Below are positions 1,370 to 2,297 of a stretch of DNA of 5,182 nucleotides, in pieces (the stretch's first letter is position 1; the number at the start of each line of letters is the position of its first letter). A program made the position numbers and the translations under genes. The notes beneath the pieces are model-generated. The model was not told where the DNA came from and did no database searches. It saw only the letters and a list, made by a program, of their open reading frames with translations. Source of the stretch: a virus (Duplodnaviria > Heunggongvirae > Uroviricota > Caudoviricetes); IMG/VR virus record IMGVR_UViG_2534681941_000045; one strand, written 5' to 3'.

Positions 1370-1472
1370 TTGTCCTCCTCTTAGCTGCTGAGGGAGTTTG
1401 TGACCGATATATCTGACATGATATTAAGCTCATGGCAGGTACATCTCTTGACTGGTCATAGAGATAAATTTA

Positions 1473-2297
1473 ATGCTGAGAAATGCAGTATTGAATTTAT
1501 CAATTTTTCACCAGCTTCTGGTCTTTCTGGCTGTCATGCGCAAAACATATGGCTTTAATAAAAAACTGGATTGGGTTAGCAACGAGCAACTTTCCGAATT
1601 AACCGGGATATTGCCGCACAAGTGTTCTGCTGCAAAAAGTGTTCTGGTAAAGCGTGGGATTTTTATTCAGAGCGGGCGGAATACCGGCATTAATAATGTG
1701 GTCAGTGAATGGTCAACATTACCCGAATCAGGTAAGAAAAATAAAGTTTACCTGAAAGAGGTAAATTTACCTGAATCAGGTAAAAAAAGTTTACCCAAAT
1801 CAGGTAAAGGCGTTTACCCGAATCAGGTAAACACAAAAGACAAACTAACAAAAGACAATATAAAACCTTTTTCGTCCGAGAATTCTGGCGAATCCTCTGA
1901 CCAACCAGAAAACGATCTTCCTGTGGTGAAACCGGATGCTGCAATTCAGAGCGGCAGCAAGTGGGGGACAGCAGAAGACCTGACCGCCGCAGAGTGGATG
2001 TTTGACATGGTGAAGACCATCGCGCCATCAGCCAGAAAACCGAATTTTGCAGGGTGGGCTAACGATATCCGCCTGATGCGTGAACGTGACGGACGTAACC
2101 ACCGCGACATGTGCGTGCTGTTCCGCTGGGCATGCCAGGACAACTTCTGGTCCGGTAACGTGCTAAGTCCGGCCAAACTCCGCGACAAGTGGACCCAGCT
2201 CGAAATCAACCGTAACAAGCAACAGGCAGGCATGATAGCCAGCAAACCAAAACTCGACCTGACAAACACTGACTGGATTTACGGGGTGGATTTATGA
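1473..2297 (+). CDS. O: Lambdoid replication initiator protein O; divergent N-terminal iteron-binding domain, lambda-like C-terminal (P-interacting) domain; possibly 5'-truncated
   Basis: 274-aa ORF. LLVFLAVMRKTYGFNK..SNEQLSELTGILP parallels lambda O LLAILRKTYGWNKP..DSQLSEITKLP. The C-terminal third (SGSKWGTAEDLTAAEWMFDMV...LDLTNTDWIYGVDL) is near-identical to my recollection of lambda O. The stop overlaps the P start (ATGA at 2294-2297). The first 12 or so residues lack O homology and the upstream Shine-Dalgarno is weak, so the true start is uncertain. Confidence 0.85.
   Translation: MLRNAVLNLSIFHQLLVFLAVMRKTYGFNKKLDWVSNEQLSELTGILPHKCSAAKSVLVKRGIFIQSGRNTGINNVVSEWSTLPESGKKNKVYLKEVNLPESGKKSLPKSGKGVYPNQVNTKDKLTKDNIKPFSSENSGESSDQPENDLPVVKPDAAIQSGSKWGTAEDLTAAEWMFDMVKTIAPSARKPNFAGWANDIRLMRERDGRNHRDMCVLFRWACQDNFWSGNVLSPAKLRDKWTQLEINRNKQQAGMIASKPKLDLTNTDWIYGVDL
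1719..1830. repeat. Iteron array of an ori-lambda-type replication origin: five copies of a 17-bp dyad-symmetric repeat, consensus TTACC(C/T)(G/A)AATCAGGTAA
   Basis: Copies at 1719-1735 (ttacccgaatcaggtaa), 1748-1764 (ttacctgaaagaggtaa, degenerate), 1767-1783 (ttacctgaatcaggtaa, perfect palindrome about a central A), 1791-1807 (ttacccaaatcaggtaa) and 1814-1830 (ttacccgaatcaggtaa). They lie inside the O gene in the linker, where they encode the repeated peptide LPESGK/LPKSGK, as the ori-lambda iterons lie inside lambda O. Confidence 0.8.
1831..1870. other. A-rich tract immediately downstream of the iterons; candidate DNA-unwinding element of the origin
   Basis: acacaaaagacaaactaacaaaagacaatataaaaccttt is strongly A-rich on the plus strand and directly follows the last iteron, the same order (iterons then A/T-rich region) as in ori lambda. 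Confidence 0.55.

Follow-up and report, generated by a model that had tools for sequence, protein, structure and literature searches.

In phage lambda, int and xis depend on pL transcription with N, or on the cII-activated promoter pI, and Q depends on read-through from pR. Transcription from pR also produces O and P and activates the replication origin, ori, which is located inside O (PMC5043065). The lambdoid prophage at icd in Escherichia coli O157:H7 Sakai is Sp8 (PMC8190617), which lacks CI, Cro, and general recombination functions, and in which the morphogenesis, packaging, and lysis functions are all conserved (Asadulghani et al., PMC2669165). Sp8 was predicted to be excisable, and tests for its circularization, replication, and packaging were negative both with and without mitomycin C (PMC2669165 Table 2). 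The DNA analysed here is the 5,182-nucleotide viral record IMGVR_UViG_2534681941_000045 (the window, meaning this whole stretch), which its sequence identifies as part of Sp8 (Sakai), called CP-933X in strain EDL933, at icd of E. coli O157:H7. Many complete E. coli O157:H7 genomes match the whole window at 100%, and the original annotation of EDL933 assigned the genes of the window to CP-933X (PMC4048457). With regard to the region between xis and the replication genes, we consider it very likely that positions 1370-1520 are the scar of a single illegitimate deletion of ~6.0 kb in this prophage, and that the prophage was thereby grounded.

The junction was searched for by comparing window 1100-1800 with 50,697 phage records. 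Bases 1100-1509 are 99.3-99.5% identical to the int-xis region of phage 21 and of many relatives, and over bases 1509-1800 phages PhiR34_1 and PhiR68_2 have the same sequence (100% identity) inside their O genes. No contiguous match to both halves was found among these records. The features on which the argument depends are the following, O' being the truncated O gene.

1370..1508, unstranded: native phage 21-type spacer 5' of xis, ending at the deletion junction.
1463..1508, plus strand: 16-bp hairpin (1463-1501) followed by AATTTTT (terminator scan, RNA fold).
1473..2297, plus strand: chimeric open reading frame (ORF) of 274 codons, with 12 spacer codons in frame with O codons 78-339 (ORF list, Pfam).
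1509..1509: deletion junction, a single C common to both parents, i.e. a 1-nucleotide overlap (three-way alignments).
1509..2297, plus strand: O' remnant, an initiator O without its N-terminus, pseudogene (RefSeq/PGAP, Pfam).
1719..1862, unstranded: replication origin within O' (repeat search).

In the three-way alignments with the parental sequences, phage 21-type identity persists through AATTTTTC, to window 1509, and O identity begins at the C immediately before ACCAGCTTCTGG. The left flank, window 1-1509, aligns without gaps and with 99% identity over 1,509 nucleotides to both phage 21 and the sequence type 131 (ST131) strain MNCRE44 (NZ_CP010876.1). The spacer itself is identical in MNCRE44 and exhibits one difference from phage 21; in intact relatives, it lies between xis and a DUF4222 gene. 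An earlier reading, made from the letters of the window and hereafter called the sequence-only reading, had placed about 100 bp between xis and the O-like ORF, had found no O homology in the first dozen residues of that ORF, and had seen O-like sequence from residue 12-15. The alignments give these observations exact values: the spacing is 103 bp (the xis start codon ends at 1369, on the minus strand, and the ORF starts at 1473), residues 1-12, MLRNAVLNLSIF (nucleotides 1473-1508), are translated phage 21-type spacer, and O homology starts at codon 13 (His), nucleotide 1509, which is also the residue from which the Pfam Phage_rep_O match extends.

The junction is thus essentially without microhomology, which, as read from the sequence, is the signature of illegitimate recombination. 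A homology-driven deletion was rejected, as only one base is shared at the junction, and an assembly artefact was rejected, as 296 complete genomes, independent of one another, carry the junction. The base right after the shared spacer is, in phage 21 and MNCRE44, the one at which the DUF4222 stop codon begins. The left endpoint (window 1509, L002 12410, and position 5994 of the MNCRE44 locus, L005) matches the end of this stop codon to the base, and the DUF4222 gene is excised exactly. This position may be a coincidence, or breakage may have been promoted by the neighbouring hairpin.

MNCRE44 carries an undeleted prophage at the same icd site, with int-xis and spacer ~99% identical to those of Sp8. 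In this strain, the spacer is followed by the DUF4222 gene, an ASCH-domain gene, a TraR-family gene, three small ORFs, exo, bet, gam, and a kil-like inhibitor, and then by an S24-peptidase repressor, a cro-like regulator, a YdaT-domain gene in the position of cII, a full-length O, and P. Window 1509 corresponds to position 5994 of the MNCRE44 locus on the left and to position 12001 on the right, so that 12001 - 5994 = 6,007 bp are missing from Sp8. The large deletion reaching into the 5' end of O, which the sequence-only reading had proposed, is therefore visible as 6,007 bp absent with respect to a prophage at the same site. That reading had also stated what would speak against it, namely full-length homologs of this O starting at the same methionine behind the same upstream sequence. 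The homologs start elsewhere and behind other sequence: in PhiR34_1 and MNCRE44, the O start lies 231 nucleotides (77 annotated codons) upstream of the onset of identity, behind the repressor, cro, and YdaT-domain genes.

Sp8 has thus lost its immunity and regulatory region with respect to intact relatives, as is expected of a grounded lambdoid prophage with an early-region deletion. By analogy with the annotation of phage 21, the lost interval would also have held pL/OL, nutL, N, pR/OR, nutR, tR1, and pRE, for which MNCRE44 itself has no such annotation. In addition to the attachment site and the ~99% identical int-xis-spacer, MNCRE44 shares with Sp8 the O type (100% over the probe), P, and the ybcN-Q-lysis genes, and it exhibits an inverse autotransporter and a hydrolase where Sp8 has ren-emrE-ybcK. 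Both MNCRE44 and phage 21 retain the 6,007 bp absent from Sp8. Phage 21 encodes a lambda-type O of 299 residues with four lambda-type iterons. The comparison with lambda, in which the deletion was first framed, needs a qualification: the deletion itself stands, but lambda is only an analogy, because the int-xis of Sp8 is of the phage 21 type and its O is of a non-lambda iteron type.

Truncation of O had been claimed as well, and this part of the claim holds, although the extent of the loss was understated. From codon 78 onwards, O' is 100% identical to the O of PhiR34_1 over the stretch searched (1509-1800), and the two translations, compared by eye, exhibit two residue differences near the C-terminus. 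RefSeq/PGAP describes a 'replication protein, incomplete ... missing N-terminus' at exactly 1509..2297, whereas early annotation of EDL933 had named the chimeric ORF Z1868, 'putative replication protein O' (PMC4048457). The full-length O is annotated with 339 residues in PhiR34_1 (L003 6932-7951) and in MNCRE44 (L005 11770-12789). The alignment of phage 21 O, which is of the lambda type, with this protein begins at Met31 of the latter, with a GGAGG motif 7 nucleotides upstream of Met31, and the true full-length O probably comprises 309 residues, its annotated start being 30 codons too far upstream. It may be added that, with its annotated start, O overlaps the stop codon of the YdaT-domain gene upstream of it. 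With a protein of probably 309 residues, the 77 annotated codons lost correspond to 47 residues, and the retained part indeed begins at the residue aligned with residue 48 of lambda-type O.

In terms of Pfam PF04492 (Phage_rep_O), O' covers positions 28-95 of 95, and the full-length O of PhiR34_1 covers positions 1-95 of 95; O' therefore does not possess a complete N-terminal domain. As it lacks 27 of the 95 positions of the iteron-binding domain, we infer that O' cannot bind the five surviving iterons. No PDB chain matched O in a sequence search for a solved structure. The C-terminal ~130 residues of the full-length relative are nearly identical to those of phage 21 O, and the window retains the lambda-type C-terminal domain of O together with an overlapping P gene. 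The origin inside O' comprises five 17-nucleotide palindromic iterons, TTACC(C/T)NAANNAGGTAA, at 1719-1835, followed by an A-rich tract with a 15-nucleotide tandem repeat at 1833-1862. This position agrees with that of ori inside the O gene of phage 21 and with the lambda layout (PMC5043065). The module thus resembles that of lambda, having an O with internal iterons, an A/T-rich tract, an overlapping P, and a nearly identical C-terminal half of O. It differs from lambda and phage 21 in having five iterons of another sequence (TTACC...GGTAA) instead of four. In contrast to the lambda-dv replicon, Sp8 has lost the pR-cro-cII part and O residues 1-47, and with them self-sufficiency.

With regard to expression, the rightward early promoter with the pR-cro-cII sequence is absent upstream of O'. 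A simple sigma-70 consensus scan of window 1100-3500, which weak or non-canonical promoters may escape, returned 0 promoter-like sites against a mean of 3.4 in shuffled sequences, and a replacement promoter for O'-P was accordingly rejected within this stretch. Published strand-specific RNA sequencing (RNA-seq) of EDL933 under eleven conditions (PMC4048457 Table S4) gives, in reads per kilobase per million mapped reads (RPKM), values of 1, 1, 1, 0, 2, 9, 0, 0, 0, 0, and 3 for O' (Z1868) and of 2, 0, 0, 0, 0, 2, 0, 0, 0, 2, and 0 for P (Z1869). The suspicion raised by the sequence-only reading that O-P may not be properly transcribed is in line with these near-background values. In the same data, int (Z1866/Z1867) has RPKM 0-1, with the Z1867 fragment in the list of silent genes, and the value for icd rises to 1,583 in lysogeny broth (LB) (PMC4048457). 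The values for emrE (Z1870) are 37, 13, 5, 49, 47, 0, 13, 27, 24, 19, and 4 (PMC4048457 Table S4); emrE is thus transcribed (RPKM 4-49) in ten of the eleven conditions and at 0 under antibiotics, next to silent flanking phage genes (PMC4048457), and therefore has its own promoter. The RpoS microarray and proteome papers that mention CP-933X report nothing on O or P.

Translation of O' is likely to be impaired as well. The sequence 5' of the ATG, CATAGAGATAAATTTAATG, contains no Shine-Dalgarno motif of the GGAG or AGGA type on direct reading, as anticipated by the sequence-only reading, which had described the ribosome-binding site as weak. The ATG at 1473 lies in the 5' arm of the hairpin at 1463-1501, and the T-run that follows the hairpin ends at the junction. 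The plus-strand RNA folds with -17.4 kcal/mol (z = -4.1), compared with -8.8 kcal/mol (z = -1.5) for the minus strand. The hairpin is native to the spacer between the leftward xis and DUF4222 genes and is conserved in phage 21 and MNCRE44. It resembles a terminator of rightward transcription, though no rightward gene is known there, and the deletion endpoint lies 8 nucleotides past its base.

Based on these observations, the deletion may be described as follows. Its left endpoint is the last spacer base upstream of xis, right where the DUF4222 gene would end, and its right endpoint is codon 78 of O as annotated, or residue 48 when numbered as in lambda-type O. The leftward early operon would have been lost, with all genes from DUF4222 to kil, exo, bet, and gam among them, and by analogy also N and pL/OL. 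The same would apply to the immunity region, with the repressor, cro, and the YdaT-domain gene that occupies the place of cII (by analogy also with pR/OR, nutR, and pRE), and the first part of the DNA-binding domain of O was removed as well. O'-P-ren has thereby been deprived of its only known promoter context, with no promoter-like substitute and with transcripts near background. Little O' protein would be made, given the fortuitous ATG at 1473, the poor ribosome-binding site, and the hairpin stem. Judging from lambda biology, the origin would also need transcription from pR, and int-xis would need pL and N or cII. As pR, the regulators, and the N-terminus of O are lost, the Sp8 replicon should be dead; as int-xis depend on pL and N or cII, and Q depends on pR, excision and late expression should fail. 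Excision, replication, and Q-dependent late expression would thus all be abolished. The grounded, defective prophage that the sequence-only reading had suspected is what the published tests of circularization, replication, and packaging describe.

Several points weigh against this explanation. MNCRE44 is a close relative of Sp8 and not its direct ancestor, with ~1% divergence in int-xis and other cargo after P, and the size and gene content of the segment lost from the true parent are what we infer. The loss of DNA binding by O' is deduced from domain coverage. The 2009 survey rated the replication genes of Sp8 as apparently functional (PMC2669165). In the RNA-seq data, the RPKM of 9 under antibiotics and of 3 in faeces for O' were scored above background by the authors (PMC4048457), and O' could be transcribed at a low level in some conditions. 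Moreover, the libraries were small, comprising 0.6-2.9 million reads (PMC4048457), and some reads may stem from other O157 prophages with shared lambda-type O/P sequence. As for the 2009 replication score, it is contradicted by the truncation of O read here and by the current RefSeq annotation, which represents a small correction.

The distribution of the scar was examined in 5,426 complete E. coli genomes with a 40-nucleotide probe centred on the junction, for which a megablast seed is possible only when the fusion is present. The fused junction occurs in 296 of them, in each case in the chromosome, and 295 of these carry the probe sequence without a difference. Among 60 sampled carriers, all labelled genomes are of serotype O157:H7. 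With a 221-nucleotide probe, ~2,400 further genomes match one half only, and the split is always at 1509; the left half lies beside a DUF4222 gene and the right half inside a replication protein gene. The pattern is one of vertical inheritance, with fixation of the defect in the host lineage, and among O157:H7 genomes with Sp8, the scar is fixed. The O/ori type as such is found in 2,449 of the 5,426 genomes. A second copy of it is present in O157:H7 strains TR01, 10671, 319, and 7784, and might supply a full-length O in trans. Dating the deletion through the O55:H7 progenitor was rejected, as strain CB9615 has neither the scar nor the undeleted ancestor: its icd site is empty, with icd directly followed by iraM (L007 4601-6277). 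An O55:H7 outbreak strain is reported to carry an Sp8-like prophage with 96% identity (PMC5708253).

The same scar could in principle have arisen by illegitimate recombination between two elements, namely a phage 21-type prophage at icd and an incoming phage or a prophage similar to DLP12 of E. coli K-12, in which case Sp8 would be a chimera. Lambdoid genomes are mosaics, the left breakpoint at a gene boundary, the DUF4222 stop codon, is typical of module exchange, and P-ren-emrE-ybcK of Sp8 is 97.6-99.5% identical to its counterpart in DLP12, which is located at argU and has an unrelated integrase. However, the undeleted prophage of MNCRE44 occupies the same icd site with the same int-xis, O-P, and ybcN-Q-lysis genes in unchanged order, and one internal deletion is therefore sufficient. 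The right breakpoint, moreover, falls within a conserved protein domain, which is not expected from module exchange. We regard a two-element origin as very unlikely, and the functional outcome would be the same either way. The single internal deletion would be set aside altogether if the 274-residue ORF were an intact short variant of O, from a parent phage with int-xis beside its replication genes. The ORF is open, in frame, and provided with an ATG, early O157 annotations named it replication protein O, and the 2009 in silico survey scored replication in Sp8 as conserved. Nevertheless, what it reads as its first 12 codons is non-coding spacer in all intact relatives, and 27 of the 95 domain positions are missing. 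Furthermore, this O type is present, but not fused at the junction, in ~2,150 other E. coli genomes, and in every such genome sampled it lies within a gene annotated as 'replication protein'. With no promoter-like site, near-zero transcription, and a prophage that does not replicate, a native short O is practically untenable, and it was rejected on account of the spacer-derived codons, the full-length relatives, and the missing domain positions.

A different question is whether the remnant has acquired a use, O' serving, as a DNA-binding-deficient O with the P-interacting C-terminal half retained, as a decoy against superinfecting lambda-type phages, or the retained origin being fired in trans by a co-resident prophage of the same O type. 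The C-terminal ~130 residues are nearly identical to those of lambda-type O, P and ren are intact, and the scar and ORF are conserved in the 296 genomes; clonal descent, however, explains this conservation across O157:H7. Transcripts of O' rose slightly under antibiotics, and some O157 strains hold the second copy of this O/ori type mentioned above. On the other hand, under most conditions expression does not exceed background, the start codon is hidden in the hairpin stem and has no Shine-Dalgarno motif, and Sp8 did not replicate after mitomycin C in Sakai (PMC2669165). Taken together, we consider such an exaptation highly improbable. If it did occur, and if O' were made at a low level under stress, O' could act as a stable decoy hindering the replication of superinfecting lambda-type phages, and firing of the five-iteron origin in trans would amplify the icd-emrE region. 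The N-terminal segment of lambda O carries the ClpX recognition signal, and this segment is absent from O'. A single deletion within the icd prophage, followed by clonal inheritance, remains the explanation that we favour.

The window is part of Sp8/CP-933X, the lambdoid prophage at icd of O157:H7, also designated O-island 52, and its other features are the following.

1..1143, minus strand: int, phage 21-type tyrosine integrase of 380 residues, intact (ORF list; ungapped and 99% identical to phage 21 and MNCRE44).
1133..1369, minus strand: xis, 78 residues, with an 11-nucleotide overlap with int (Pfam PF07825 Exc, E = 3.7e-5).
2294..2995, plus strand: P, replication protein P of 233 residues, intact (PGAP name; Pfam PF06992).
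2992..3294, plus strand: ren, 100 residues, intact (PGAP 'protein ren'; 99.5% identical to the 5' part of renD of K-12 DLP12).
3362-3694: emrE, multidrug efflux, prophage cargo likewise present in K-12 DLP12.

The xis gene is 99.3-99.5% identical to that of phage 21, as is characteristic of a phage 21-type int-xis pair, and the PF06992 match on P covers positions 1-162 of 162 (E = 9.5e-62). In EDL933, 113 bp separate the end of icd from int and the start of the window, which places the prophage end next to the 3' end of icd, and the icd-int layout of MNCRE44 is the same. The gene order from icd in EDL933 is site-specific integrase, excisionase, incomplete replication protein, P, ren, emrE, and ybcK, beyond which a full set of nin-region, Q, lysis, packaging, head, and tail genes is present.

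The window differs from EDL933 in two additional 1-nucleotide deletions in ybcK and in an IS1203 insertion. The deletions, of an A in an A-run at ~4409 and of a C at ~4960, are located in the recombinase gene ybcK (window 3939-5007) and break it into ORFs 3939-4448 and 4403-4969; they resemble long-read homopolymer errors and may not be real. The final bases of the window, 5008-5182, belong to an IS3-family element inserted in ybcK, which is named IS1203 in the matching genomes. This insertion is present in O157:H7 strains Z1813, Z1814, and F7386 and absent from EDL933, whose match ends at 5007. About 9 kb upstream of the window, EDL933 (L001 1-10973) also carries a compact phage-like element between roxA and phoQ, comprising genes for a DUF927 primase-like protein, an HK97-type capsid, a protease, a portal, a P27-family terminase, and a DUF4222 protein, and devoid of tail genes. 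Between roxA and phoQ, CB9615 as well as EDL933 has the integrase-bearing phage-like element.

DLP12 offers a comparison within a related prophage. Its layout is intD-xisD'-exoD'-peaD'-renD::IS3-emrE-ybcK and, like Sp8, it has its immunity and early region deleted, with the cut reaching the replication genes. In DLP12 (L004 2599-4748), the deletion left an exo fragment fused to the final 103 codons of P, at the equivalent of window 2684, and an IS3 element splits ren at the equivalent of window 3082. Unlike in Sp8, O and the origin are gone entirely. To judge from these different endpoints, the deletions of DLP12 and Sp8 are independent events.

The defect of Sp8 was already known in substance, as RefSeq flags the O remnant as a pseudogene and the literature describes Sp8 as immobile and without its regulatory region. 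What is added here is the breakpoint at base level (nucleotide 1509), the size of the deletion (6,007 bp with respect to the closest undeleted relative), its content, and an undeleted reference. The significance of this beyond bookkeeping is small. The junction provides a clean 40-nucleotide marker, which in the collection of 5,426 genomes is found only in genomes consistent with O157:H7. The deletion also offers a mechanistic reason why excision, replication, and packaging of Sp8 were never observed despite its complete structural, packaging, and lysis genes. Together with DLP12, Sp8 illustrates how related prophages became stranded through deletions that struck the same early and replication region independently, while the emrE cargo survives in both and stays expressed.

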